This document shows, piece after piece, positions 951 to 26,797 of a stretch of DNA of 64,000 bases; positions within the stretch are counted from its first letter, which is position 1; the number at the start of each line of letters is the position of its first letter. This stretch comes from Escherichia phage OSYSP, in the sequence record MF402939; one strand, 5' to 3'. The position numbers and the translations under genes are program-made. Under the pieces are notes generated by a model. That model did no database searches and was not told the origin of the DNA. It was given only the letters and a program-made list of their open reading frames with translations.

Positions 951-980
951 TTGCTAAATTCTCTCGAAATCTAGTATAAT
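951..980 (+). promoter_or_regulatory. Second copy of early promoter (TTGCTA, 18 bp spacer, TATAAT) with A-rich upstream element
   Basis: Near-duplicate of the 849-877 promoter about 100 bp downstream; GTATAATATATACATAAATT shared by both. Confidence 0.6.
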
Positions 981-12463: not shown

Positions 12464-15297
12464 TCCACAGACTGTTCTCCATCATCCCCTTCTGCCCTAA
12501 TACGAAAATACAATTTTCTATTTATACCTAGAGCACCGCTGTTCTGGAGAGCAAAGTCTGCCTTATTATATGTTAATAAATAGTCATAAGTATACTGATT
12601 TTCAATACGTACACTTCTTAACATCCTATTTTGTGAATCGTGTATTTCAAGGGTATAAAATATACTCTCTATTATATCTTCTTCAGGTATTCTATCCCAG
12701 GCTAGTTTCACATCTGGGCCAACAAACTCAGTTACATCTCCAGAAGCAGTATTAGTTACCCTAAAATTAGATACTACACTAAGGTTTTTAGCAGAGTTAA
12801 GTTCTATAGACAGAGTCACCGGGGAACTTCTTCTACCATTAATATCTACTGCCCTTATCTCAAATATAGCCAGACCTGCTGGTTCCCCAATTATTTCTTG
12901 GACCATACGTTCGTTAGGATTGGTCTCTAACTGTTGTATTATGTAAGGTTCGGCATGGCCTGAGTGCACAATAGAGTAGTAAACTACATTATTGGTTAGA
13001 CTCGGAAGCCAGGATAACTCACCATTTTTACCTATAGAGCCTACTAAACCGCCAGGAGTAGGAGTATATTTAAAGTCTCTAGGAGGAAGGACATTGTTAC
13101 TAATATCAGGAATATCATTACCGCTATTATCAACCTGCTCAGAGTTGATGAATACATCCTCTCCATACTCCTGTAAGGTAACATTTATCTTACCCTCTCT
13201 AGAGTTTTCAACCTCATCAACTAGGAAATACTTTTTGTTCCACCCGTAACGGTCATACGTGAATGCAATAGCATCATTGGGTTCAATCCCTATGAACTGG
13301 TATGGTAATGAGAAAGAAAGTGTTCTTGAGTATCTGGATTTCTTAAGTTCTCTATCCGCAAAACTTCTTGCAGTATAGTAGTTAGTAATATTAGCAAAAG
13401 ATAGTTGTAATTTTTTATCTAGGTTCTTGTCCTGTTCCTTATACTTGGAATTATAGAATGTAATAGAATTAGTTTTCCAGCTAAGGGCGGGATCTACGAT
13501 AGATGCTTGAACTGAGTTGAATTTATTTCTACCAGTAGTATCTGATAGCTCCAAATCACCGTAAGTATCTAGAAAATTAATCTCTAAGGGAGTATTAGAG
13601 TATTTTTCTACAGTAACCCTATACTGACCAGATAAATTGTTAATAGCCCCACCATAGGACTCTAACAAACCTTGCACATTTTTAAATACTGATTCAGATG
13701 TATCCAAAATAGTATTCATTTGTACTATTTGTCTATTTTCTGCTAGTGGATCAGTCCACCCAACGTATCTCCAATATGGCTGCCAAGATACCTGATAGGA
13801 TTCATCTATAATATCTAAAATAGCTGCCTCCTGTATTAATTGCTGAAGAGGGAACTGATCAATGGTAATATTAGCGCCATATCTATCAGAGGTTAAGTAA
13901 TCAAGTGTTTGCCAAATACCATTTAAACTAGTACTATTAGCAGTTACTCTACCATCAGAATGATAGACTTTTACTTTTTTACCTTGAATTTCAGCACTAA
14001 CTTCTGGAATCTCAGTCCTATTTTCATTAATAGTGAAGCGCACCACTGCGTATGCAGTATCTAGTAGCTTATATCTAGCATCCCAGTACTCCGGCCCATT
14101 GCCATTCATATTCTGAAGGTAGAATCCACGTTCTTTAGCTATATCTACTAGTACTTCAGAGGCTGTTTGATCAGATTTTCCGTGATAAGTCCAAATCCTT
14201 ATGTCACCATTTCCATCATTATACTTATACTCTTGACCATGGACGGATGGACTACTAGAAGAGGTTCCAGATGCTATCCTCTGCATTGTATCTCCTGCTA
14301 TTTTTTTAGTACCAAAGCAGGTTCTAGCGGAGCTATCATTAGCATCTACGCAGATCATAGGATTATCACCGAAGGAGAAATCAAGAAAACCATCAATCTC
14401 CCCCTCAGCAAAGGCGTATACGACATAAACTATGTTGGGATTGTGTAGTTCTGTATCAGCAAAAATAGGTATTCCAGGAATTTTTTGAACCCCATAAACC
14501 ACCGGTATGTATTTAGCAGCAAGGTTAAAATCTATATCCACTTCCTTAGTGACAGTTTCATAGTATTTTTTAAGGCTGTAGCTTCTAGATAAACCAAATA
14601 ATTTTTTCTTTGATTTTAGCTTGTATCTTTCTTCTTGAACCTGATATTTTGCTAGGATAGAGATACTTTTATTAGAGTGGAAGAAGCCGTAGTCTTCTTG
14701 ATACTCTGGTCTTTTAGCACCATTAGATGGTACTAACTGTCCAGCTACAACTTCAAGCCCCCTATGGGAAGCGTCATCAGTATATCTACCATTAACTCTA
14801 TCAAAGTCATAGAATTGGTTAGAACAATTCCAGGTAATTGTAGAGGTTCCTACTCCAGAGGTACTAATGTTATCTTTAATACCCCCTCCAGTAATCCTCC
14901 CCCTAAAATATAGTAAAGGACCATTTGTATCTGGGTCTACTGGCAGAATAGAACCATCTTCAGTAATAATTGCTTGATGAATTGATACGGTTCTATCTAA
15001 GAAGGATACACCATTTTGTACTAGTTTTAGTACTTCATCCTGAGCTGTACCAGTAATAGTAAAAGATAGACTACCAATAGATAAATCTCTATTTTGTTTA
15101 TGTGAGCTAATAGACTTAACTTTACCCGCCTGGTATAAGATGCCATTATATAGTACATCCCTAAAATAATCAGTTAAATAAATAAAAGCAGTACTAGTAC
15201 CAGTAGAGCCAGGTAACTCTAGAGAAATTAGACTAGCAGTTTTTATTCTGCTATTATTTTTTAAGTAGTTTCTAGCACTATCTAGTATTTTTTTCAT
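12448..15297 (-). CDS. Baseplate hub protein (T5 pb3-like)
   Basis: 949 aa, matching T5 pb3 length and position. Confidence 0.7.
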   Translation of the reverse strand: MKKILDSARNYLKNNSRIKTASLISLELPGSTGTSTAFIYLTDYFRDVLYNGILYQAGKVKSISSHKQNRDLSIGSLSFTITGTAQDEVLKLVQNGVSFLDRTVSIHQAIITEDGSILPVDPDTNGPLLYFRGRITGGGIKDNISTSGVGTSTITWNCSNQFYDFDRVNGRYTDDASHRGLEVVAGQLVPSNGAKRPEYQEDYGFFHSNKSISILAKYQVQEERYKLKSKKKLFGLSRSYSLKKYYETVTKEVDIDFNLAAKYIPVVYGVQKIPGIPIFADTELHNPNIVYVVYAFAEGEIDGFLDFSFGDNPMICVDANDSSARTCFGTKKIAGDTMQRIASGTSSSSPSVHGQEYKYNDGNGDIRIWTYHGKSDQTASEVLVDIAKERGFYLQNMNGNGPEYWDARYKLLDTAYAVVRFTINENRTEIPEVSAEIQGKKVKVYHSDGRVTANSTSLNGIWQTLDYLTSDRYGANITIDQFPLQQLIQEAAILDIIDESYQVSWQPYWRYVGWTDPLAENRQIVQMNTILDTSESVFKNVQGLLESYGGAINNLSGQYRVTVEKYSNTPLEINFLDTYGDLELSDTTGRNKFNSVQASIVDPALSWKTNSITFYNSKYKEQDKNLDKKLQLSFANITNYYTARSFADRELKKSRYSRTLSFSLPYQFIGIEPNDAIAFTYDRYGWNKKYFLVDEVENSREGKINVTLQEYGEDVFINSEQVDNSGNDIPDISNNVLPPRDFKYTPTPGGLVGSIGKNGELSWLPSLTNNVVYYSIVHSGHAEPYIIQQLETNPNERMVQEIIGEPAGLAIFEIRAVDINGRRSSPVTLSIELNSAKNLSVVSNFRVTNTASGDVTEFVGPDVKLAWDRIPEEDIIESIFYTLEIHDSQNRMLRSVRIENQYTYDYLLTYNKADFALQNSGALGINRKLYFRIRAEGDDGEQSVEWASI

Positions 15298-15908
15298 AAA
15301 CTTTCCCGTAAATTTAATGAGATGCCGGAATATGTTCCGTTATTATTTAATGTAGATCCGAAAGCATCACCATTCATGAGTTTTGTTCTAAACAGTATCC
15401 CATTAAATACTGGTTTTTCAGCTCCAGTAGTCGTTACAAATAAATCAGGGTATACGTTAATAGACCATGAATTACCAGATCTATTAAATGATGTTATTTT
15501 ATAAACTTTTGGGTGATTGGATAATTTAAATAAATCACCTGGTTTAGGGATGCCGGTAAGAACACCTTTTGTATCCATAGTAATATTGGAACCTTTTTGT
15601 CCTGCTGGTATATTTACTAAGTTAGTATTGCCCCTAACCCTAAAAGCCTCATACTGAGGTAATATAACATCAATGTAGCCTCCTGTCCTCTTATACTCTA
15701 GAATAAAGGAATCTAGAACACTATATTCATCAGGAAACAATTCTGGGTAAGAAATATTTATACCCCAGTACTGAGCAGATACCTTAACTTCGTTAACTTT
15801 ACCATTAGGTAACTCATCACGAATTACTGGGTCATTATCAATCAGGTTAACACTTTCGAATCCTAATCCTGAAAGTTCTGGATTCGTGTATGGGTCTGGT
15901 AATCTCAT
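15294..15908 (-). CDS. Distal tail protein (T5 pb9-like)
   Basis: 204 aa, matching T5 pb9 length and position. Confidence 0.7.
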   Translation of the reverse strand: MRLPDPYTNPELSGLGFESVNLIDNDPVIRDELPNGKVNEVKVSAQYWGINISYPELFPDEYSVLDSFILEYKRTGGYIDVILPQYEAFRVRGNTNLVNIPAGQKGSNITMDTKGVLTGIPKPGDLFKLSNHPKVYKITSFNRSGNSWSINVYPDLFVTTTGAEKPVFNGILFRTKLMNGDAFGSTLNNNGTYSGISLNLRESL

Positions 15909-16017
15909 AGTTAATTTCTCCTCTTAGATACAATTATTATAATAGTATTAGAAAATTTTATCAAGAAATTTTTATTTTTCCATATAGAAAAGGAGGACTC
16001 AAAGTCCTCCTCCAGTT

Positions 16018-19000
16018 TTAAGAATTTCCTAGTGTTTTTAGGCTAGCACCATTCTCATTCAGAGCTAGTTCTACTGCATCCCTCAGAGCACCGCTATTAC
16101 TAGAGGCGAACTCTCTAAAACTAGCAGCATCCATAGCACTAATATTCAGGATGATAGGTCTTCCTGAGATTGAATTAGAGGAATTTTTTAACTCATCATT
16201 AGGTGTAGCTTTCATAGGAATCATAGGTGTAATTACTTCTGTACCATGTTCTCCCATCTGGTAGCTAACCCCTGGGTACATATTACCACCTTCGGCACGA
16301 GGCACAAATGAATTAGCATTACCAATACCTTGATCACCACGTATATAGGATAGTTCCCCAGCGTTAGCAGACATAGATACATCAATGTTCTTCTGACGCT
16401 CTCCAAGAGTTAAATAACTAGTAGTATCCGCTCCAGAATCTGCAATACTTGACATACTAGAGGCAGAGGATGCCTGCGCTAATGCCAGAGCACCTGCTAA
16501 TCCTGCCGCTACCATCAGAGGGATAGAGAACGGGTATGGTACAGCTGTTGCTGCCTGCATAACTGCTACTGCAGTTTGGATGATAATCTGCTTCTTAGCT
16601 GCATCTTGTTGAATCTTCAGCTTTTCAGCTTCTAGCTTCTTCAATTTAGCTTTAGATGCTTCTGATTTACCATCACGTTTCTGCTCCGCTGCGATAGCTG
16701 CATCAATAGCACTAACCTGCTGACTAGTACTGTATTGAATCATAGAAGCCACAGTTTGCATACCAGAAGCAATCAAGGAAGTAGTATCTAGAGATCCCTG
16801 AGAGAACTGAATCATAGCATTAGTTAAGTTACCCATACTTTGTGCTACTGCAGTTGCTTCAGAATTTAGCTCAGATAGCTTAGAGATTGCTTGGTCATAA
16901 GAAGCCATTCTATTTTGCATATCAGCAAAATCTTTATCTTCTCCAGATAATCCCGTTGTAGGAGTGTACACAGCACCTACAGAGGATCCTACCTGTTGTT
17001 GCATTTGAGCATTACGTTGCGCCGTTAAAGCAGACATTTGAGCCCTTGTCTTAGCTATTTCAGCATTCCAGCGCATTTGCTCGTTAGCATTACCTTTGGT
17101 AAGTTCTTTCATCTGAGTATAAAAATCTAACTGCATTTCCATTTTTTGCATTTCCCCTGCCAGAGGGAACATGGAAGTTAGAGTATTTTCAAAGGCTTCT
17201 TGCCTTTTACTGGTCATTTCAGCTTGCTGATCCTGACGGAATTTCCATATTTCACGTTCAATTTGAGCTTGAGAACGTCTAGACTGTTCAGCCTCTTTCT
17301 GTTTATCAGCCTGTTTTGTATACCATTCGTACTTCTCTTTTTCAATGGTCAATTCAAGATTTAACTGTGCTAGACGATACTGAGTATCTGTCATAGTACG
17401 GTTATTTAAGAGAGCTATCTCACGATCTACACCAAGAATTTTATCTGTGTAATCCTTGACCTTCTTCTGAGCTTCCATACCCTGATTAGTAAGTTTAAGT
17501 TTCTCCAGCTGAATTTTTTCAATTTCTTTCTCAACAGCTTTATTTCCCTGGTTTGTTTGAAGAACACGGCGTAAAGCAGCTTCTTGCTCTTCTAACTGTT
17601 GGAGTTCTAAACGTCTACCAGCTTCCTGAGCCTTTTCCTTATCCTTAGTTTGATTATACACATCAGCTATTTTCTGTTGAACTGCTAACTGATTTTTAGT
17701 TTCATTACCAGTTAGTTTAACATACTCAGATAGAGCCTGAGATGCAGTTTTCATTTCAGACAGGGTGTTATAACCCAGGTTAAGGTTTTTAACATATTCA
17801 TCGGCACTCTTACCGGTACCTAAGGATAGAGATTCTATATTTTTTATAGCATCTGCCAAAGTAGCACTAGTTTTAGCAGCAGTATCTGTATTATGAGCAA
17901 CGTTCTGTATATCATTAGCTAAGTCACTAGCCGTTTTCTTAGTCTGATTGTACGCTTTCTGCTGCTCAGTTAGTCCTTTTAATACAGTAGAGTTAAAATC
18001 GTATACAGCATCAGGATCAGTAGTATCTCTCTGTAGATTAATTTGCTTCTGAAACTCTGGACTAGCCTTTGCAGCAGCGGCACCAGCAGCTTGATACGCT
18101 GATTTCCAAGCATTGAGATTCTCTGTAGAATCCTCTACTTCCTTACCAAGTCTAGTTACTTGTAGACCCATAGCTGCAGTTTCTGCTACAAATTGCTTAT
18201 TGGCCTCCGAAGCACCTGCTGCTGCAAGACCAACAGGAATACCTTCACCAACTTGACGTATAGCTAATTTTGTATAGAAATCTGCTTGTTCCATTCGTTT
18301 ATCAAACTCAGATTTTAGCTTATTACGCTTATCAAGAGATTCCTTATACATATCTAGAGCTTTATTATAGCCTTCTTCAGAAGCAGCTAAACTTAAAGCA
18401 ACAGCACCAACGTTGGTAGGGTCTATCTGTCTATTAGTTTTTTCTTGGGCCCTAGCTGCTTCAGCAGATATAGAAGCCTGAGATGTATAAAATACTGTGT
18501 TGATAGCATCAATTACTGGCCCTAAATACTTAGCAGCAGCTTGTTGTATTTTTCTTAGTGCAGCATCTGCATTAGCAGCAAATTGCTCCCACGGAGTTGC
18601 ACGTAGTACTTCATCTAGGTAGCCAAAACGCTTAGTAGATTCAGCAATTACCGCGTTAGCGTATGCTTGTTGCTTCTGGAAAGTGGTAAGACTATTAACA
18701 TTATATGTTATACCTGTGTTTGCAGCATTTAACTGTTTAACATAATCAGCGTATGCATCATTAAGACGGATGGTGACACCCAGCTCATCCAGAAGTTCGA
18801 TTTCTTGTTTAGATACGCCCTTAATTACACGGTTAAGTGCATCAGTCATATCAACGCCAAGAACAGCAGCCGCACGACGAGCTACTAAACCAAATTTATT
18901 AAGTTGTTCGGCATCAAATCCATAAGCAGATGCTGAAGATGCCTGTCTCATTGCTTCCTCAAAAGAAATAGCATATCCAGCAGCTTCTTGTAGTGATCTA

Positions 19001-19701
19001 GCAAGGGTCTGAACAGGAGTACCTGTCTGAGTACCTACTATAACACCAAATTTTTCTAGACGATTTAGCTGATCACCTAGTTTAAGTTGTTCAAATGCTG
19101 ATTGCAAAACGAAGATGTTGGAAGCAAGAGCTGCGTACATAATAGGTAGACTACCACCGATCTTAGCCATTGCCGCAAAATCACGAGTTGCACCACGTGC
19201 TGAACCAGAAGTATTACCAATAGCTCTAGAAGCTCTACCAGCGGCACCAGCAGTATCATTAAAACCCCTAGCTGTGCCACCTAATGCTCTATTAGTATCA
19301 TATAATCTATCCTGGACTTTTTCTGTTGCAGCTGCAACATCATTACCCATTGTTTTAACAGATCTAGAAACTCCATCGAATCCAATTTCTAGTTTATCTG
19401 TTACTTCAATAAGCTGGATAGCTAGGTAATCTAGTTTATCACCAATATCATTAATAGATTTGGTGATACCAGCCATACCCCTACTAGCTTGCATTTTAGT
19501 AAGACTTTTTGCTGCTCTGTCTGCTGCCCTCTCAATGGAATAAAGAGTTTTGGGCATTTTACCTAACTGCTCATTTGTTAGTTCGGAAGCAGCAGCAGCA
19601 TTTTCCAACGCATCAGATACGTTTTCAATAGACTTTGCAGTACGAGTTGCCCCCTTCTGTTTAACGTCTATTAGTAATTCTCGTATTAGCTTATCAGTCA
19701 T
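16018..19701 (-). CDS. Tail tape measure protein (T5 pb2-like)
   Basis: 1227 aa, long coiled-coil and Ala/Gln-rich regions, largest gene in the tail block. Confidence 0.85.
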   Translation of the reverse strand: MTDKLIRELLIDVKQKGATRTAKSIENVSDALENAAAASELTNEQLGKMPKTLYSIERAADRAAKSLTKMQASRGMAGITKSINDIGDKLDYLAIQLIEVTDKLEIGFDGVSRSVKTMGNDVAAATEKVQDRLYDTNRALGGTARGFNDTAGAAGRASRAIGNTSGSARGATRDFAAMAKIGGSLPIMYAALASNIFVLQSAFEQLKLGDQLNRLEKFGVIVGTQTGTPVQTLARSLQEAAGYAISFEEAMRQASSASAYGFDAEQLNKFGLVARRAAAVLGVDMTDALNRVIKGVSKQEIELLDELGVTIRLNDAYADYVKQLNAANTGITYNVNSLTTFQKQQAYANAVIAESTKRFGYLDEVLRATPWEQFAANADAALRKIQQAAAKYLGPVIDAINTVFYTSQASISAEAARAQEKTNRQIDPTNVGAVALSLAASEEGYNKALDMYKESLDKRNKLKSEFDKRMEQADFYTKLAIRQVGEGIPVGLAAAGASEANKQFVAETAAMGLQVTRLGKEVEDSTENLNAWKSAYQAAGAAAAKASPEFQKQINLQRDTTDPDAVYDFNSTVLKGLTEQQKAYNQTKKTASDLANDIQNVAHNTDTAAKTSATLADAIKNIESLSLGTGKSADEYVKNLNLGYNTLSEMKTASQALSEYVKLTGNETKNQLAVQQKIADVYNQTKDKEKAQEAGRRLELQQLEEQEAALRRVLQTNQGNKAVEKEIEKIQLEKLKLTNQGMEAQKKVKDYTDKILGVDREIALLNNRTMTDTQYRLAQLNLELTIEKEKYEWYTKQADKQKEAEQSRRSQAQIEREIWKFRQDQQAEMTSKRQEAFENTLTSMFPLAGEMQKMEMQLDFYTQMKELTKGNANEQMRWNAEIAKTRAQMSALTAQRNAQMQQQVGSSVGAVYTPTTGLSGEDKDFADMQNRMASYDQAISKLSELNSEATAVAQSMGNLTNAMIQFSQGSLDTTSLIASGMQTVASMIQYSTSQQVSAIDAAIAAEQKRDGKSEASKAKLKKLEAEKLKIQQDAAKKQIIIQTAVAVMQAATAVPYPFSIPLMVAAGLAGALALAQASSASSMSSIADSGADTTSYLTLGERQKNIDVSMSANAGELSYIRGDQGIGNANSFVPRAEGGNMYPGVSYQMGEHGTEVITPMIPMKATPNDELKNSSNSISGRPIILNISAMDAASFREFASSNSGALRDAVELALNENGASLKTLGNS

Positions 19702-19711
19702 GTTTTATTTT

Positions 19712-19749
19712 TCCCAATAAAAAAGGCTCTGGGCAAATCACCCAGAGCC
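19712..19749 (-). terminator. Rho-independent terminator immediately upstream of tape-measure start
   Basis: Hairpin GGCTCTGGG-loop-CCCAGAGCC followed on the - strand by TTTTTTATTGGG. Confidence 0.6.
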
Positions 19750-19784
19750 AAGCCTCATCGTGGAACGCCCATTGGAGGAAACTT

Positions 19785-20153
19785 TTACCGTGCACGAGAT
19801 CTAGCATGTGGCTTAACGTTAGGAATCCTTCCGTTTTGCGGTTTATGCTTCTCAGCACGCTTACGTGCAGCATCTACAGCTTTAGCATCAAATATATTGA
19901 TAATGTGTAGAACAAATTCTTTTTCTATAGGATCAGTAATCCCATAAATATCAAATAAAACACCTAATGCAGCCTTATCCTTACCTATAAAAATAGGAAA
20001 GTCACCCGGTATGAAACAGTCAATCAGACTGTTATAAATATTCATACTAATAGATACAATAGGTGGAAAATCTTCGAGTTCAACAGGCATAGCCTTTGGA
20101 TCAGGTTCTATACCCATTGACTCGCAAAGTATTAAATATTGTTGTTTAGTCAT
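19785..20153 (-). CDS. Putative tail assembly chaperone
   Basis: 122 aa ORF between tail tube-associated genes and tape measure. Confidence 0.5.
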   Translation of the reverse strand: MTKQQYLILCESMGIEPDPKAMPVELEDFPPIVSISMNIYNSLIDCFIPGDFPIFIGKDKAALGVLFDIYGITDPIEKEFVLHIINIFDAKAVDAARKRAEKHKPQNGRIPNVKPHARSRAR

Positions 20154-20214
20154 TTTAGATGCTGAGCTTTTAATACATTTGTCTGCAAAATCAGCAACAG
20201 CATCTAGGAGTTCT

Positions 20215-20619
20215 TTACGCTTTTGGGCTACGAAAAGTGTCTAAGTGGAACACTGTCTGGTTGATCCAAGAATCAAACGCAGCAGAGTTCTGCATGAGCA
20301 TTACAGCGTTATCGCGGCTAAAAGGAACTTCAGTAGCAGGATCAGCATCTGTTTCAATCAGCATCAGTTTTTCAACGTCACCAACAGTTAAGCCAGTCCA
20401 GCCTTTAATAGCTGCGTCAACAAAGGCTTCAATGAACTTATCGTCATCCTGTACCTGAATCAAAGTACCGTTAACCCATTCATCGCGTTTAGCAGAGGAA
20501 ATAACACGTTTAGAAGTAGCACGAGACATGTAGTTAAGTTCTAATTTAAAGTTCGGCATACCTGGGTAGGAAAGAGTAATAGTACGAGTATCAAGAGTAA
20601 TATCTTTTAAATTAATCAT
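20215..20619 (-). CDS. Putative tail assembly protein
   Basis: 134 aa; start overlaps stop of upstream gene. Confidence 0.5.
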   Translation of the reverse strand: MINLKDITLDTRTITLSYPGMPNFKLELNYMSRATSKRVISSAKRDEWVNGTLIQVQDDDKFIEAFVDAAIKGWTGLTVGDVEKLMLIETDADPATEVPFSRDNAVMLMQNSAAFDSWINQTVFHLDTFRSPKA

Positions 20620-21515
20620 TTTTTAATTTCTCCAAAGAAATCTATTCTCACTGGGTCTGAAGAAGCAGTAGGTATAATATCCCACTCAACTCTATACACA
20701 TCTGAGAACTCTAGGCGTTTTGTAATACGTGCTGAAGGAAAATCTATAGAAATATTATTATTTCTTATCGTTAAAGGTACATCTATCTCCGGTTCTATAT
20801 TATAAACCATATCTCCTGCAAAACGTTTTAAGTAGTACAGAGAAATGGTTGCCGAAGCATTCATTTCAGTTACATAGGCTCTTTTATTATTATAAATTTT
20901 ATTTATATCAAAAACACTCTTATCCTCTCTCCAGGAGCACTGCTGCTGGAAAGATAAAGAGGCAGAAATAAGACCGGGTAAGATGCTGCCATTAGTAGAA
21001 GCTATTACTGGGCTGTAAGACATTACTTCACCCTGTATAATAGAAGCTGCTTCTCTATACGTAGATACTTCTGAGAATTTCCCAGACTCAATACCAACAT
21101 TAAGAATTGGTATGTTCTTATCTAAAGAAAAATCTACCGTAGATACATAACAGTTTTCAAAATATACACAGTTATTATCTTTGTTTACTATATAGATATT
21201 GAACATAATAGGTTCAATATTACTACTATATAGTGGGAGTAAGAAAGTATTACCTTTTCTATCAAAACCTAACCATTCAAAGAAGTTAGCTTCAGTAAGA
21301 GTATTACTAAAATTTACTGCTAGAGAGATAGAAGAGGGGGTTTGAGCATTTATAATAGAGTCTGCATAGTTAGTTCTACGATGAACAGTCCTACGAAGAG
21401 TCTTGAATTCCTCGTAGGAAGTCTGTATATCATAGTTTGATAGGGCATCAAAATGAAATGCCCTACCATCATACTCAACTATAACTTTTGACTCTCTCAT
21501 TAGAGAGTAGTACAT
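20616..21515 (-). CDS. Tail protein (T5 p140-like)
   Basis: 299 aa immediately downstream of tail tube gene. Confidence 0.55.
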   Translation of the reverse strand: MYYSLMRESKVIVEYDGRAFHFDALSNYDIQTSYEEFKTLRRTVHRRTNYADSIINAQTPSSISLAVNFSNTLTEANFFEWLGFDRKGNTFLLPLYSSNIEPIMFNIYIVNKDNNCVYFENCYVSTVDFSLDKNIPILNVGIESGKFSEVSTYREAASIIQGEVMSYSPVIASTNGSILPGLISASLSFQQQCSWREDKSVFDINKIYNNKRAYVTEMNASATISLYYLKRFAGDMVYNIEPEIDVPLTIRNNNISIDFPSARITKRLEFSDVYRVEWDIIPTASSDPVRIDFFGEIKK

Positions 21516-21519
21516 TTAA

Positions 21520-22917
21520 TTAGCCACCTGCTGTTACAGTAATCTGTTTAGTACCTTTAACTCCAGAACCATCTTTAGCAGTAGCTTCTACAGTTACTTC
21601 ACCAGTTTTAGTGGTGTCCGCAGTTAATAGGCCAGATTCTGGATCAATTGTAGCTGCATCACCGGCAGTGATAGCCCAAGTAACTTCCTTATTCTTTGCG
21701 GAAGAAGGAGTAACTTCAACACTCATTTGAAGAGTAGCCGAGTTATTTACTGTAGTAGCATCACCAGCAGATTTAACAGTAATTGCGGTTACAGCATTAG
21801 TAGCACCATCACCATTAACAATCAAGTTATTAATAGTTGTTTTGGTATATTTACTAGAGAAGCCTAAGTAACCTTCGTCACCAGCATCCAGATCAGATGG
21901 AATAGCTTTAAACTCTACTGAAGTACCAAGTACATCATCAGTTTCAATAGTAGGAATATTAACGTGTGCTTGTTTAGCTACCAGAATAGCCGCAGGACGT
22001 TCTTCATCGTATTCACCACCAAGTACTAGAGCAATTTCGAAGCGGTTAACTACCTTCAGAGTTTTGATAAGATCTTTATACAGCTCCATAGAACCAAGAG
22101 ACTTATCATTCAGATAAGCAGTTAATGAACCAGTTAATTCAAAAGCACCAGTAAATGAACCAATTGGAATATTAACACGAGACATAATATTCGGGGTTAG
22201 GTACGTGATGTTGTTATTAATAGTGAAAGTACCACCAGTAATAGGAATATCATAAGACTTATTGGTATCCATGTCTTTGATCTTCAAGATCGTTAGTTTG
22301 TTCTTAATATAAGAACCCTGGATAGTCATATAAGTTTCATCATCAATACCTAACTCATCTGGGTCAAATGGTTGCGCATCCAGAGGAATGAGCTGATTAC
22401 CATTACCAGACCAAGTTACACGGCCAATATCTTCGATATCAACGTTAACTTCTGCCTGATTAATCTGACAGGAATCGATATAACTCCATGCTTTATCAGT
22501 CAGAATATAAATATGTAACATTGCTAACTCATGGTAGGAGTTATCTTTGAAGTTAACCATGAAGTTAGCTTCGTTATTGTGTGCCCCTGTATTACCTTCT
22601 AAGTTAATAGCTTTACCACTAGAAAGTGCATGCCATAACATATAGTCAGGAACGATTTGCTTCTGATCATCTTTATTGATATAGGGCAGGATGTAAGTAG
22701 AGAAACTCCACTCAGCCGCGTTTAAAGAGTCATTAAAACGTTTAGAACCACGAGTTGGACGCGGACCAGCTTCATTAACAGTAATATCTGTTGAGTTACT
22801 GTCCTGACCCCAAGAAATATCATCCTGAACTAGAATCTCTTGCGTGTTGGTCTTATTATGACCAGTCTTAACCGTAGACACGAAGATTCGAGTATTACGT
22901 AATAGTTGTAAAGACAT
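21520..22917 (-). CDS. Major tail tube protein (T5 pb6-like) with C-terminal Ig-like domain
   Basis: 465 aa (T5 pb6 about 464); C-terminal Thr/Ala/Gly-rich beta-type segment typical of Ig-like decorations. Confidence 0.8.
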   Translation of the reverse strand: MSLQLLRNTRIFVSTVKTGHNKTNTQEILVQDDISWGQDSNSTDITVNEAGPRPTRGSKRFNDSLNAAEWSFSTYILPYINKDDQKQIVPDYMLWHALSSGKAINLEGNTGAHNNEANFMVNFKDNSYHELAMLHIYILTDKAWSYIDSCQINQAEVNVDIEDIGRVTWSGNGNQLIPLDAQPFDPDELGIDDETYMTIQGSYIKNKLTILKIKDMDTNKSYDIPITGGTFTINNNITYLTPNIMSRVNIPIGSFTGAFELTGSLTAYLNDKSLGSMELYKDLIKTLKVVNRFEIALVLGGEYDEERPAAILVAKQAHVNIPTIETDDVLGTSVEFKAIPSDLDAGDEGYLGFSSKYTKTTINNLIVNGDGATNAVTAITVKSAGDATTVNNSATLQMSVEVTPSSAKNKEVTWAITAGDAATIDPESGLLTADTTKTGEVTVEATAKDGSGVKGTKQITVTAGG

Positions 22918-22943
22918 TTAATTATTTTCTCCTAATCTGTAAC

Positions 22944-23429
22944 TTATCTGCGAAGTGACCTACGTGGAGGCTGATACCTCACTGTTACATTTATTTCTGC
23001 TAAACCATATGGGGCCAGTAGACCCTCATCTGTACTAACTGATGTAATGCTCATATCAGTCGCCTCACATGGGAAGGTCGATCCATTAGGTTTACTAACA
23101 GTATATTCTAAATTTCCACCTGTGTCAATAACGGTTTTTATATCCGCTACGAGTTTTTCAAGTTGCTCTTGAATGTCTGTTTTCTCTTTATCATACACCA
23201 GGATAGGAAGTTCTAAAAACATCCATTGTTGACCTGAGGGAAGATACTGCCCAGTTTCAGTTCCGATATGAACTGCAACATAAGGAAACTCTCGTATCTC
23301 CTCAAACTTATAAGTTTGACGTGAGACGTTTCCATACAAGTTATTAAAATATTCATCTGGTTGAGAGCCATCCATTTGTTTGGCTATTCGGTCAACCAGA
23401 GCTTGTGCTATACTTGTTCTGTGATCCAT
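22944..23429 (-). CDS. Tail completion protein (T5 p142-like)
   Basis: 161 aa; position between connector genes and tail tube. Confidence 0.55.
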   Translation of the reverse strand: MDHRTSIAQALVDRIAKQMDGSQPDEYFNNLYGNVSRQTYKFEEIREFPYVAVHIGTETGQYLPSGQQWMFLELPILVYDKEKTDIQEQLEKLVADIKTVIDTGGNLEYTVSKPNGSTFPCEATDMSITSVSTDEGLLAPYGLAEINVTVRYQPPRRSLRR

Positions 23430-23432
23430 TTA

Positions 23433-24200
23433 TTAGGTTCCTTGATTAACCTTAATTTTGTACCTGGAGTGAATTAAGTCTCTTGCAGCTTTAGCTATCG
23501 CCTCTCCAATTAGTCTTTGGGGGTTTCTAGCACCTGGGTAGGGTCGTAATGACAATCTTCGATATGTAGATACTGCAGGATTAAATACTGAATATGGACG
23601 TACCATATAATTATATGTAACATTTAATTCAGGAGAACCTTTGCTAGTTCCAGCATCTCTAAGCATAACATCTTTAACTTTTAGAGAATTTGCAAAACGA
23701 CCTGTTCTAAATTTAAGTGGAGCTCCTGCTTTTTTCATATCCTTTATTAAGTATTCTTTAGCAACCAACTCCAGAATAACCTTCATATTACTATTTGATA
23801 CAAAACGACCAGAGGCACCTGTTACTGCACCAGAATATCCATCTTCTACGTCTCTAGGATCCCCAAAGTTTACTTGAACTCTACCAGTAGAACGTTTTTT
23901 ACCTACAGAGGATTTTTTACCAGCGGTTGCTTGAATAAGACTTTCTAAAGCACCTAAGTCTCCTGTTAGATCTAAGCTAGAAGAAACTGCTTTTAGAATA
24001 GAAGCGGTCCTAACATTAAGGAGATCTTGGGATACAGGTTTTGAGAACTTAAAAGATACCTGAGCAACAGTACCATCCCTAGTAGGATCTTTTAGTCCTG
24101 TTTCAACAGAGTATACAACAGTATTCTTATTGTTCTCGGAACGCCCAACATTATCTAGCTGCTCCTTAATAATTTGTGTAGCTAAATCAGAAAGAGACAT
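23433..24200 (-). CDS. Head-tail connector protein
   Basis: 255 aa; synteny. Confidence 0.5.
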   Translation of the reverse strand: MSLSDLATQIIKEQLDNVGRSENNKNTVVYSVETGLKDPTRDGTVAQVSFKFSKPVSQDLLNVRTASILKAVSSSLDLTGDLGALESLIQATAGKKSSVGKKRSTGRVQVNFGDPRDVEDGYSGAVTGASGRFVSNSNMKVILELVAKEYLIKDMKKAGAPLKFRTGRFANSLKVKDVMLRDAGTSKGSPELNVTYNYMVRPYSVFNPAVSTYRRLSLRPYPGARNPQRLIGEAIAKAARDLIHSRYKIKVNQGT

Positions 24201-24712
24201 TATACTCTCCTGTAAACTTCAATAATAGTACGAATATGCTCTGGAATACCAGATTTAGTATTATTAAATGTAACCGTTTCCCCACCAATTGTTTTAGCTT
24301 GACGGTAATCCTGTTTATGCCAATGATCTACTAGCATACATGCTGCAAGTTTGAGATCCTCAGGAATTGGGTTAAATCCACCTTGTGTGTACTCTACATC
24401 CATATAACCTTCTGGAGGACTAAATTTAAGAAGTATAACCCCATCAGAGTACAGCCTATATTGCTCAGGGTCTATCTCCTTATCATTAATAGTCATTTTG
24501 GTCACTGAAGTAGCCGAGGGAGAGCTTAAAAAGTATTTTTTACGAGTAGGTTTTGTATTGATTAACTGGTCTACCGCATCAGCATCATCCATACCTAAAA
24601 GGCTAGTAATCAGCGCATTGGCAGCAGTAATCATCATTTCTACTCCAGACTCTAGTTCAGGTCGTTTTAACCCGCCGTATAATCTATAGTCTTCAGCTGT
24701 GATTATTTGCAT
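24200..24712 (-). CDS. Head completion / adaptor protein
   Basis: 170 aa directly downstream of major capsid gene. Confidence 0.5.
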   Translation of the reverse strand: MQIITAEDYRLYGGLKRPELESGVEMMITAANALITSLLGMDDADAVDQLINTKPTRKKYFLSSPSATSVTKMTINDKEIDPEQYRLYSDGVILLKFSPPEGYMDVEYTQGGFNPIPEDLKLAACMLVDHWHKQDYRQAKTIGGETVTFNNTKSGIPEHIRTIIEVYRRV

Positions 24713-24770
24713 TTATTTTTCCCAATAAAAAAGAGAGCCGAAGCTCTCCTTATCGGCTGAAAAGCCTGTA

Positions 24771-26147
24771 TTAAGATGCAGCGTAAGCACCAGATACAAC
24801 GCCATTTGCAAAGTAACGTTGCAGGTTAACACGCTGAGTAACGTAGTATGCGTCACGCTGTTTACCAGCTTGGCGCTCACGTTCAACAGTAACAGCACGC
24901 TGGCGTGGCATTACGAAGTTATCTTTATAAACAATAACTGCGAACTCTGCGGAAGTAGCTTTAGCTGGGAAGTATTCTGAAACTACAACCGGCAGACCAT
25001 AAATACGACCAACCTGACCCTGCAGTTTAACAGCATCATTACCAACTTGGGCAACATCCTGCCATTCTTCATCTTCCAGCAGATCGTAGTAAGCATCCAT
25101 AGATACAATCAGTACCAGTTTGGACAGTTTCAGACCATGGCGGCCCAGTTTACGACGCAGTTTAGAGATAGTTTTAGCAGTTACCAGTACGGAACCATCA
25201 GCTTTAGCTTCAGTAATAACTTTAGCACTATCTTCACTAGCAAGAGTCAGCAGACCTTTCGGCTTACCGGAACCATCACCAGTCATGAAGGCTTCTTCAA
25301 TAGAAACAGCGTGTGCTTCAATCAGACGCTTACGAAGCAGTGGCAGCAGGGAGAAGATTGCATCTTCTTCAGTTTCATCAGTAATGAAGGATTTAGCAGC
25401 CAGTTTGTAAGTACTGAAGTGGATCTCTTTAAGAGCTCCTTTAACTTCCTCACCAGTAGTTGTATCGGTACCATAAGTAGAAGCAGCAACCCAAGTAGCT
25501 TTACCAGCATCCGGTTCAACCAGCATAGTAAGAATCTTACTGGACATCGGCAGTTCTTCGAACAGTGCGCCAACTACCAGCTCTTTCTGCAGGTCACGGA
25601 TAATACGCTGAGAGAAAATAGTTTCATAGCTTTCACTAGAAACTTCTACAGAAGAAGACTGATTCACTGCTTTCAGGTGTCTCTGACCATGCTCGGTCTC
25701 GAATACGCCTTTTTCCATTACATAAGATAACAGAACCAGTTTTTCAACTTCATCTTCAAAGTTTTCCTGAGTACCGTACAGTGCTTTAGCAACACTATCA
25801 CCAACGAAGGAACGACCTTCACGAGCTGTTAGCAGAGATTTGATTTCGTCTTGAAGACCGACAATAGTTTCCTGTTGTTTTTCTACAGTTTGTGCAAACA
25901 GTTCTGCGCTCTTCTTAGATTTCTCATCCAGAGACTTAACCAGATCCAGAGCCTCTTCCAGACGCTTACGGTCTTCACCAACAGCTTTAGAAACCAGGTC
26001 ATTCATACGAGCCAGTTCTTTTTCTTCCTGCTCTTTACGCATACGTTCAGCTTCCTGAGCTTTCTGAGCAGCGGTCAGACCTTCCAGAGATTTAGCCAGA
26101 TCACCCAGACCAAGTTCTTCTTTCAGCTTATTAATATCAATAGTCAT
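24771..26147 (-). CDS. Major capsid protein precursor (T5 pb8-like) with N-terminal scaffolding delta domain
   Basis: 458 aa as in T5 pb8; N-terminal 150 aa is a charged coiled coil; followed by HK97-fold-like body. Confidence 0.85.
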   Translation of the reverse strand: MTIDINKLKEELGLGDLAKSLEGLTAAQKAQEAERMRKEQEEKELARMNDLVSKAVGEDRKRLEEALDLVKSLDEKSKKSAELFAQTVEKQQETIVGLQDEIKSLLTAREGRSFVGDSVAKALYGTQENFEDEVEKLVLLSYVMEKGVFETEHGQRHLKAVNQSSSVEVSSESYETIFSQRIIRDLQKELVVGALFEELPMSSKILTMLVEPDAGKATWVAASTYGTDTTTGEEVKGALKEIHFSTYKLAAKSFITDETEEDAIFSLLPLLRKRLIEAHAVSIEEAFMTGDGSGKPKGLLTLASEDSAKVITEAKADGSVLVTAKTISKLRRKLGRHGLKLSKLVLIVSMDAYYDLLEDEEWQDVAQVGNDAVKLQGQVGRIYGLPVVVSEYFPAKATSAEFAVIVYKDNFVMPRQRAVTVERERQAGKQRDAYYVTQRVNLQRYFANGVVSGAYAAS

Positions 26148-26164
26148 TTTTAAATAATTCTCCG

Positions 26165-26797
26165 TTATTCTTTAACGTAGCCTAAAGCTATCGCAAGTTT
26201 TTCTAGTTCAGAAAGATTACGTTCTTGAGCTGGGACAGCTTTAGAACTTATTGCAGTAAAAGATTTACGCCATTCAGTATAATCATGACCATTCATGCTC
26301 TTAGCGAGATTGAATGTTGAGTCCTGATTACAAGGTACAGAAACTACCGAAACTTCGTATAGTTCTAAATCTTTAATAATAAATATATCAGTAGCTTCAT
26401 CCCACTCTGCATCTAGGCAGCGGAATCCGATACTAAAAGTTTTCAGTACACCGTTTTTAATTAGTGAAAAGATAGCCGGGTCAGAACTTTCATAGATCTC
26501 GCATTCGATTTCGAGACCCATTTCAGTAGGGTTAAGATCAATACACTTACCGATTGGACGACGATGATCGTGTCCGAAAAGAATAATCGGGTTTTTCATA
26601 TAGTTAGTAAGTGCATTAGATGTTTTCCACGCAGAAGCAGGAATTACATCACCAGCGCGATCTTTACTAATTGTATTAGCGAATCCACGGATTTTTACAA
26701 CGCCCTCTTTGGATTCGCTATCAATAGATTTAATATAAGCATCTAAATGAACGGGTGCTGATTTTAACTTGTTATAGTCAATAGCAGCTTGTGTCAT
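26165..26797 (-). CDS. Prohead protease (T5 pb11-like)
   Basis: 210 aa, located between decoration protein and capsid genes. Confidence 0.75.
   Translation of the reverse strand: MTQAAIDYNKLKSAPVHLDAYIKSIDSESKEGVVKIRGFANTISKDRAGDVIPASAWKTSNALTNYMKNPIILFGHDHRRPIGKCIDLNPTEMGLEIECEIYESSDPAIFSLIKNGVLKTFSIGFRCLDAEWDEATDIFIIKDLELYEVSVVSVPCNQDSTFNLAKSMNGHDYTEWRKSFTAISSKAVPAQERNLSELEKLAIALGYVKE

Follow-up and report, generated by a model that had tools for sequence, protein, structure and literature searches.

A 22-nucleotide repeat at three late-gene junctions of Escherichia phage OSYSP: probable terminator tails joined to the initiation signals of the next genes

Introduction

Transcription terminators placed between late genes are a familiar part of phage genomes. 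In phage T7, the terminator T-phi stands directly after major capsid gene 10, and partial read-through feeds the lower-copy structural genes; T-phi is a class I signal for T7's own RNA polymerase. In phage T5, the sigma-70 promoters PG25 and PJ5 yield transcripts in vivo that primer extension detects only at late times of infection (PMC7472727), and an AAAAATT block around -43 has been reported for promoters of the T5 type (PMC3326045). Here, we report on a 22-nucleotide (nt) sequence, CTTTTTTATTGGGAAAAATAAA (the 22-mer), which recurs at three late-gene junctions of Escherichia phage OSYSP (sequence record MF402939). The window, the whole stretch of 64,000 nt that was analyzed, comes from a T5-like phage (Tequintavirus) with its late structural genes on the minus strand. 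Site 1 follows the tape measure gene, site 2 lies between the tail-chaperone genes and the tape measure gene, and site 3 lies between the major head and head completion genes. No description of the 22-mer was found in the literature, nor were T5 Term-seq or RNA-seq data, a transcriptome, or a transcript map.

In all probability, the 22-mer is the U-rich tail of a terminator fused without a spacer to the start signal of the gene that follows, with three such terminators dividing the late operon. The motif splits in two, a T half and an A half, because the T half is conserved and the A half is lineage specific.

Results

The 22-mer is present in exact copies at 19704-19725 (site 2) and 24712-24733 (site 3) and with three mismatches (CTTTTCTATATGGAAAAATAAA) at 15971-15992 (site 1), always on the minus strand (window searched at up to three mismatches). 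Dinucleotide shuffling gave an expectation of 0.01 matches, and none of 100 shuffles reached three. An earlier note, made from the sequence alone, had described a repeated 22-bp element beside a GC hairpin at three late junctions, with a start codon within 0 to 4 nt at two of them, and both observations hold. At every site, the last base of the GC-rich hairpin is the first base of the 22-mer copy. At site 3, the motif ends with the A of the start codon (ATG, 24712); at site 2, 2 nt (AC) separate the motif from the ATG (19701); and at site 1, the next ATG (15908) lies 62 nt beyond the motif and has a strong Shine-Dalgarno (SD) sequence of its own, AAGAGGAG.

The note had also proposed a search for further copies, which added none: the 64-kb window has no full copy beyond the three, and a degenerate pattern covering all three variants matched exactly three times per T5-like genome in IMG/VR. 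About 16 singleton matches to this pattern were seen in unrelated IMG/VR contigs, mostly after other hairpins, a number that by rough estimate is about the chance level for an A/T-rich pattern beginning with a T-run. One such sequence (L044, 9511-9531, and L093; IMG/VR 3300032255_000005 and 3300032254_000181) has the hairpin GCCGCTTTTAAGCGGC, then an identical 21-mer (TTTTTTATTGGGAAAAATAAA), then an ATG. The gene downstream encodes a 639-amino-acid (aa) tape-measure-like protein unrelated to pb2, the T5 tape measure protein, and the gene upstream is divergent. The 21-mer may be there by chance, by convergence, or as a transferred cassette; for horizontal transfer, the tape-measure-like protein is unrelated to pb2, and the chance count in the collection is roughly estimated at 0.4.

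The T half is the tail of a terminator at each site (all on the minus strand). At site 1, the hairpin GAGGAGGACU-UUG-AGUCCUCCUU (15990-16012, GC core 15992-16010) begins 5 nt past the tape measure stop, and its core stem folds with 10 pairs at -16.1 kcal/mol (z -3.0). At site 2, the hairpin GGCUCUGGGUG-AUU-UGCCCAGAGCC (19725-19749) lies 35 nt past the stop of the second chaperone open reading frame (ORF) (TAA, 19787-19785), with 11 pairs, 7 of them G-C, in the terminator scan. At site 3, the hairpin AAGGAGAGC-UUCG-GCUCUCUUU (24730-24751) lies 20 nt past the major head stop; the same scan gave nine pairs closed by a UUCG loop. The hairpins are thus codirectional with the tape measure, chaperone, and major head genes that they follow at 5 to 35 nt, and a U-rich tract stands directly 3' of each stem (UUUUCUAUAU at site 1, UUUUUUAUU at sites 2 and 3). 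All three orthologous hairpins are annotated as putative rho-independent terminators in the T5 record (NC_005859).

Comparison among lineages points the same way. For 12 site-2 lineages, RNAalifold recovered the terminator stem as the sole structure, and compensatory changes at 4 of its 11 pairs keep the pairing. The site-3 stem does not vary among enterobacterial genera; lineages farther away have different GC hairpins in its place. When about 700 nt around site 3 were aligned for six genera, no invariant stretches were longer than the hairpin sequence GGAGAGCTTCGGCTCT (16 nt) and TTTTTATT (8 nt), and each genus had its own version of the A-rich half. Rfam covariance models gave no match at 15000-26500 on either strand, up to an E value of 1.

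The stem at site 3 is unusually strictly conserved for a terminator. Its GGAGAGC-UUCG-GCUCUCC (24733-24749) has the same nucleotides in genera whose capsid identity is 52 to 70% (L143, L145, L146, L158, and L170), and two sequences (L170 and L187) have the entire 40-nt hairpin plus 22-mer in common with T5. The closest IMG/VR relative (L118, IMG/VR 2974619798), with a 100% identical capsid protein, has 13 T versus 6 in its site-3 U-tract, at the position of 24724-24732 in the window, which is either homopolymer length variation or a sequencing artifact.

At sites 2 and 3, the A half is best described as a Shine-Dalgarno region, because SD variants fill the same position in other lineages. In the window, the site-3 copy runs from the U-tract CUUUUUUAUU (24733-24724) through an SD-like GGGA (24723-24720) and an A-rich spacer to the A of the ATG; the site-2 copy likewise has the U-tract, GGGA (19715-19712), and A-rich spacer, followed by AC and the ATG of the 1,227-aa tape measure gene. 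Site 3 has a constant layout in about 25 lineages of Demerecviridae, whose capsid identity ranges as low as about 45%: stop codon, GC hairpin, T-run, purine-rich core, 5 to 9 nt, and ATG, with GGGA, GGGT, GGAG, GAGG, GGAGG, AGGAGG, or GGGG as the core. The layout of site 2 persists in the same way with a changing SD sequence, and AGGTG is also among the cores of other lineages at the two sites.

No -35/-10 pair could be fitted between hairpin and ATG at site 2 or 3, and the promoter scan gave none just downstream. A late-promoter reading of these two sites was therefore rejected; a T4-type TATAAATA box is likewise absent from the sequence.

Among 27 Tequintavirus/Epseptimavirus sequences, the whole intergenic junctions are near invariant, well beyond the 22-mer, in contrast to the variable third codon positions on either side; the sole variable stretch among close relatives is the linker of 0 to 4 nt between motif and ATG at site 2. 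The earlier note had made conservation in relatives a test of its proposal, and the answer is divided: the junctions are better conserved than neighboring synonymous sites, and beyond close relatives only the T half is kept. Exact identity of the two 22-mers is specific to Tequintavirus/Epseptimavirus and reflects strong purifying selection on both junctions rather than a function peculiar to the motif, with common descent or gene conversion possibly contributing. Concerted evolution of sites 2 and 3 was considered and is not relied on, the signal being weak and confounded (P = 0.012; 0.03 without one close lineage).

At site 1, the diverged copy (15971-15992) is divided differently. Its T half is the terminator tail, and its A half, GGAAAAATAAA, runs on as AATTTC, is A+T rich, and lies directly upstream of a -35 hexamer. 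This belongs to the orthologue of P-G25 (15936-15964, minus strand): TTGATA (15964-15959), 17 nt, and TATAAT (15941-15936), which match the consensus at 11 of 12 positions, followed by the SD sequence AAGAGGAG (15925-15918) and the ATG (15908). In the T5 annotation, the 75 nt after the site-1 terminator are 'promoter P-G 25'; mapped onto T5, the T half falls within the terminator feature and the A half within the promoter feature. The site reads GGAAAAATAAAAATTTC-TTGATA, in agreement with the AAAAATT consensus. The succession of terminator, A+T block, -35 hexamer, 17 nt, and TATAAT is kept in seven genera, in which the A+T sequences differ.

A fourth, partial copy, GAAAAATAAA, lies within AGAAAAATAAAAATTTTAG on the plus strand (933-942), with no terminator before it and directly upstream of TTGCTA (951-956), 18 nt, and TATAAT (975-980). 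The window has four matches to GAAAAATAAA versus 0.65 expected, and GAAAAATAAAAATTT precedes this other strong promoter (951-980, plus strand) as well as site 1. The site-1 A half is accordingly assigned to the upstream A+T block of a known promoter, because of the T5 annotation, the AAAAATT consensus, and this second promoter with the same block. As judged from sequence, it is the -43/UP-like block of the late promoter P-G25, with a putative stimulatory effect. The promoter at 951-980 is of the early T5 type, TTGCTA-18-TATAAT followed by ATATACATAAATT. The orthologue of PJ5 was found at 23128-23100 (TTGACA-17-TATACT).

Two of the junctions have taken up genes in relatives. In T5 itself, an HNH endonuclease gene (T5.141) sits between TTTTTTATT and the pb2 ribosome site and splits the 22-mer (L033, NC_005859, 7778-8530); the insertion point is orthologous to about 19715/19716 of the window, where OSYSP and most relatives are uninterrupted. 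An additional gene of about 250 aa stands at the site-2 junction in Vibrio relatives (Thalassa gp31, VCPH, and D13). With genes inserted at site 2, the terminator stays and the new gene has its own ribosome site, so that this junction of terminator and ribosome-binding site (RBS) appears to be a hot spot for gene insertion. At site 3, some relatives (L122, 8935-9534; also L133, L005, L016, and L031) have an extra gene of about 650 nt with its own hairpin between the major head stop and the terminator, at the junction orthologous to 24752-24770 of the window. In L122, the product has Pfam matches to the CapR homology domain and to a treble-clef zinc finger, and the extra gene probably represents a mobile element.

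A noncoding block, AAGUUUCCUCCAAUGGGCGUUCCACGAUGAGGCUU (19750-19784, minus strand), fills the space from the chaperone stop to the site-2 hairpin. It holds an anti-SD-like sequence, UUUCCUCCA (19781-19773; motif TTTCCTCCA), which occurs once in the window. The block is invariant in 26 close relatives, and about 17 of 18 Demerecviridae lineages retain its anti-SD-like core, RR-UUU(U)CCUCCA. Hidden coding, as a frameshift extension of the chaperone or an ORF through the junction, was rejected: several lineages have stops in every frame, T5 and KpGranit differ in their frame relative to the block, and no conserved ORF runs through the site-2 junction. A local CCUCC:GGAGG hairpin upstream of site 2 was rejected likewise, since RNAalifold gave no consensus pairs, and no covariation of the UUUCCUCCA block with the downstream ribosome site was seen.

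The neighboring genes follow the order of T5, and the window is 92 to 95% identical to hundreds of T5-like phages. On the minus strand, terminase, portal, and protease genes are followed by the major head protein gene (24771-26147, 458 aa; stop TAA, 24773-24771), site 3, and the head completion gene (24200-24712, 170 aa). The same order continues with neck and tail terminator, tail tube, and chaperone genes, site 2, the tape measure gene (16018-19701, 1,227 aa, ATG at 19701, stop TAA at 16020-16018), site 1, the distal tail protein gene (15294-15908, 204 aa, ATG at 15908), and pb3. The gene labels that the note had given were right: the tape measure protein is the pb2 orthologue, the 458-aa ORF is the major head protein, and the 170-aa ORF matches the Pfam 'Head completion protein' family (HCP, E value of 1e-79). 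Neither of the two tail-chaperone ORFs (134 and 122 aa; 19785-20153 and 20215-20619, minus strand) had a Pfam match. The second lacks a recognizable SD sequence, which would fit frameshift expression from the first, as in lambda G/GT.

Discussion

The proposal that the 22-mer is a single reusable late regulatory element did not survive the comparison: the motif is composite, its A half is replaced by SD variants in other genera, and it occurs in three copies only. As a terminator/re-initiation cassette, it fared better in part, with terminators at all three sites (by the T5 annotation) and a restart of transcription at site 1 from P-G25. The scan gave nothing promoter-like at sites 2 and 3.

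From this arrangement we infer the following scheme of termination efficiency, read-through dependence, and stoichiometric role. Of the late transcripts from upstream promoters, a part would end at site 3, past the major head gene, and those reading through would supply the head completion and neck genes. PJ5 would boost the tail tube and chaperone genes, after which site 2 would again stop most transcripts. The tape measure gene, placed between two terminators and with no promoter of its own, would depend on read-through and a weak ribosome site. Site 1 would close the tape measure unit, and PG25 would restart transcription for the distal tail genes. Since no promoter fits at site 2 or 3, the head completion and tape measure genes would be expressed only from read-through transcripts. 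Partial termination after abundant products (major head; tail tube and chaperones), together with weak RBSs, may thus keep head completion and tape measure proteins low, a scheme that fits the virion copy numbers of these proteins.

Several points weigh against reading the 22-mer as a terminator tail joined to a start signal. The core GGGA can pair with no more than about 3 nt of the 16S anti-SD and, at site 2, stands 11 nt from the ATG, which makes it a poor SD sequence by itself. The exact 22-nt identity, at nonhomologous junctions and after unrelated hairpins, exceeds what a generic U-tract plus SD would lead one to expect, and the same 21-mer follows a different hairpin, before a tape-measure-like gene, in an unrelated 42.6-kb contig. 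The two junctions are also more similar within genomes than between them (0.39 versus 0.32, permutation P = 0.012), a comparison that phylogeny and composition confound.

Some of these points would also suit a dedicated operator, be it an RNA hairpin (UUUAUU-GGGAAA-AAUAAA) exposing GGGAAA in the loop or a DNA inverted repeat (TTTATT-N6-AATAAA), through which a late regulator, such as a repressor or activator of translation, would coregulate head completion and tape measure genes. Nearly all close relatives have the exact 22 nt unchanged at two unrelated junctions, an inverted repeat of 6 bp without mismatch is predicted to fold in one context (a 106-nt fold), the junctions are slightly more alike within than between genomes, and the unrelated contig has its identical 21-mer before a tape-measure-like gene. 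Yet the A-U hairpin is marginal and missing from centroid structures, and in Sugarlandvirus, Myunavirus, Novosibvirus, and more distant lineages an ordinary SD sequence replaces the A half, so that the inverted repeat is lost while the terminators are kept. Conservation is, moreover, equal over the whole junction, T5 tolerates an endonuclease gene within its site-2 copy, and there are neither further copies nor an Rfam match; we regard such an operator as very unlikely. Still less credible is the idea that the A half is UP-like at all three sites, with late promoters at sites 2 and 3 that are weak or factor dependent and have their core in the first downstream codons. It can appeal to the four occurrences of GAAAAATAAA in the window, two of them at about -50 to -41 of strong sigma-70 promoters, to a CTGATA at the same spacing from site 2 that is one base off PG25's TTGATA, and to the T5 late promoter PJ5, which lies within a coding region. 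What makes it highly improbable is that no acceptable -10 hexamer follows either site, that neither is in the promoter scan list, that transcripts begun there would miss the start codon of the gene they precede, and that the A half of other genera holds a canonical SD sequence, not an A+T block.

The junctions could also act on translation. Upstream sequence might mask the ribosome site on read-through RNA, with UUUCCUCCAAU (site 2) and GCCGAUAA (site 3) as partners, making each junction a combined transcriptional and translational attenuator. AUUGGGAAA has a complement, UUUCC(UC)CAAU, upstream of site 2; the CCUCC region pairs with the downstream SD in the minimum free energy (MFE) folds of 7 of 12 lineages, and its block is kept in about 17 of 18; the site-3 MFE fold pairs UUGGGAAAA with upstream UUUUC..CCGAUAA. 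Against this, cognate duplexes between upstream sequence and RBS are no stronger than noncognate ones (-6.24 versus -6.34 kcal/mol, permutation P = 0.58), SD accessibility with native flanks is not consistently lower than with shuffled ones (mean z of -0.45 at site 2; 19 lineages at site 3), and RNAalifold recovers the terminator stem only, all of which leaves masking quite unlikely. We hold it to be unlikely, too, that the site-2 terminator and the UUUCCUCCA block form the 3' module of a small RNA or a cis attenuator found throughout the Demerecviridae, and/or that the 22-mer of sites 2 and 3 is the operator of a late regulator. The chaperone 3' UTR opens with this block, RR-UUU(U)CCUCCA, which has the look of both an anti-SD seed and an RNase E site, and closes with the hairpin and the U-tail of the T half. 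If this reading were right, termination and processing would release an RNA of about 65 nt, which could pair with GGAGG-type sites (e.g., those of small and large terminase and prohead protease) or, on read-through, with the tape measure RBS.

The reading of the 22-mer as a terminator tail abutting an initiation signal adds little that is new, as the T5 annotation already includes the terminators and P-G25; the shared 22-mer comes about as a by-product where ordinary signals adjoin. Possible novelty is confined to the nucleotide conservation of the capsid terminator and to the UUUCCUCCA block. What emerges is an architecture for the late operon, with terminators after the major head, chaperone, and tape measure genes and with PJ5 and PG25 as the only internal restarts, which is of relevance to the engineering of T5-like phages and the borrowing of T5 regulatory parts.

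Comparison with known systems

Phage T5 (NC_005859) is the nearest described system, with orthologous, near-identical sequence: terminators at 92087-92113, 96553-96587, and 101563-101586, promoter P-G 25 at 92013-92087, and the same flanking genes (pb2, distal tail protein, chaperone, major head pb8, and head completion). It differs in that its site-2 copy is interrupted by T5.141, and its record makes no mention of a shared 22-mer. By analogy, site 3 may be likened to T-phi of T7, as a terminator right after the gene for the most abundant structural protein; here, in contrast, host sigma-70 RNA polymerase is at work, and the tail of the terminator runs straight into the next ribosome site. 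Site 1 resembles the UP element or -43 block (of rrnB P1 and of the T5 promoters studied by the Bujard laboratory) in having an A-rich run, extended by A/T-rich sequence, directly before the -35 hexamer, but its block directly abuts the terminator U-tract, and binding by the alpha C-terminal domain is putative here. Sites 2 and 3 have the form of a Shine-Dalgarno sequence with an A/U-rich spacer, a purine-rich core 7 to 11 nt before the ATG followed by an A-rich spacer; they depart from it in the weak core GGGA of this lineage and in a start right after the terminator tail, with almost no untranslated leader.

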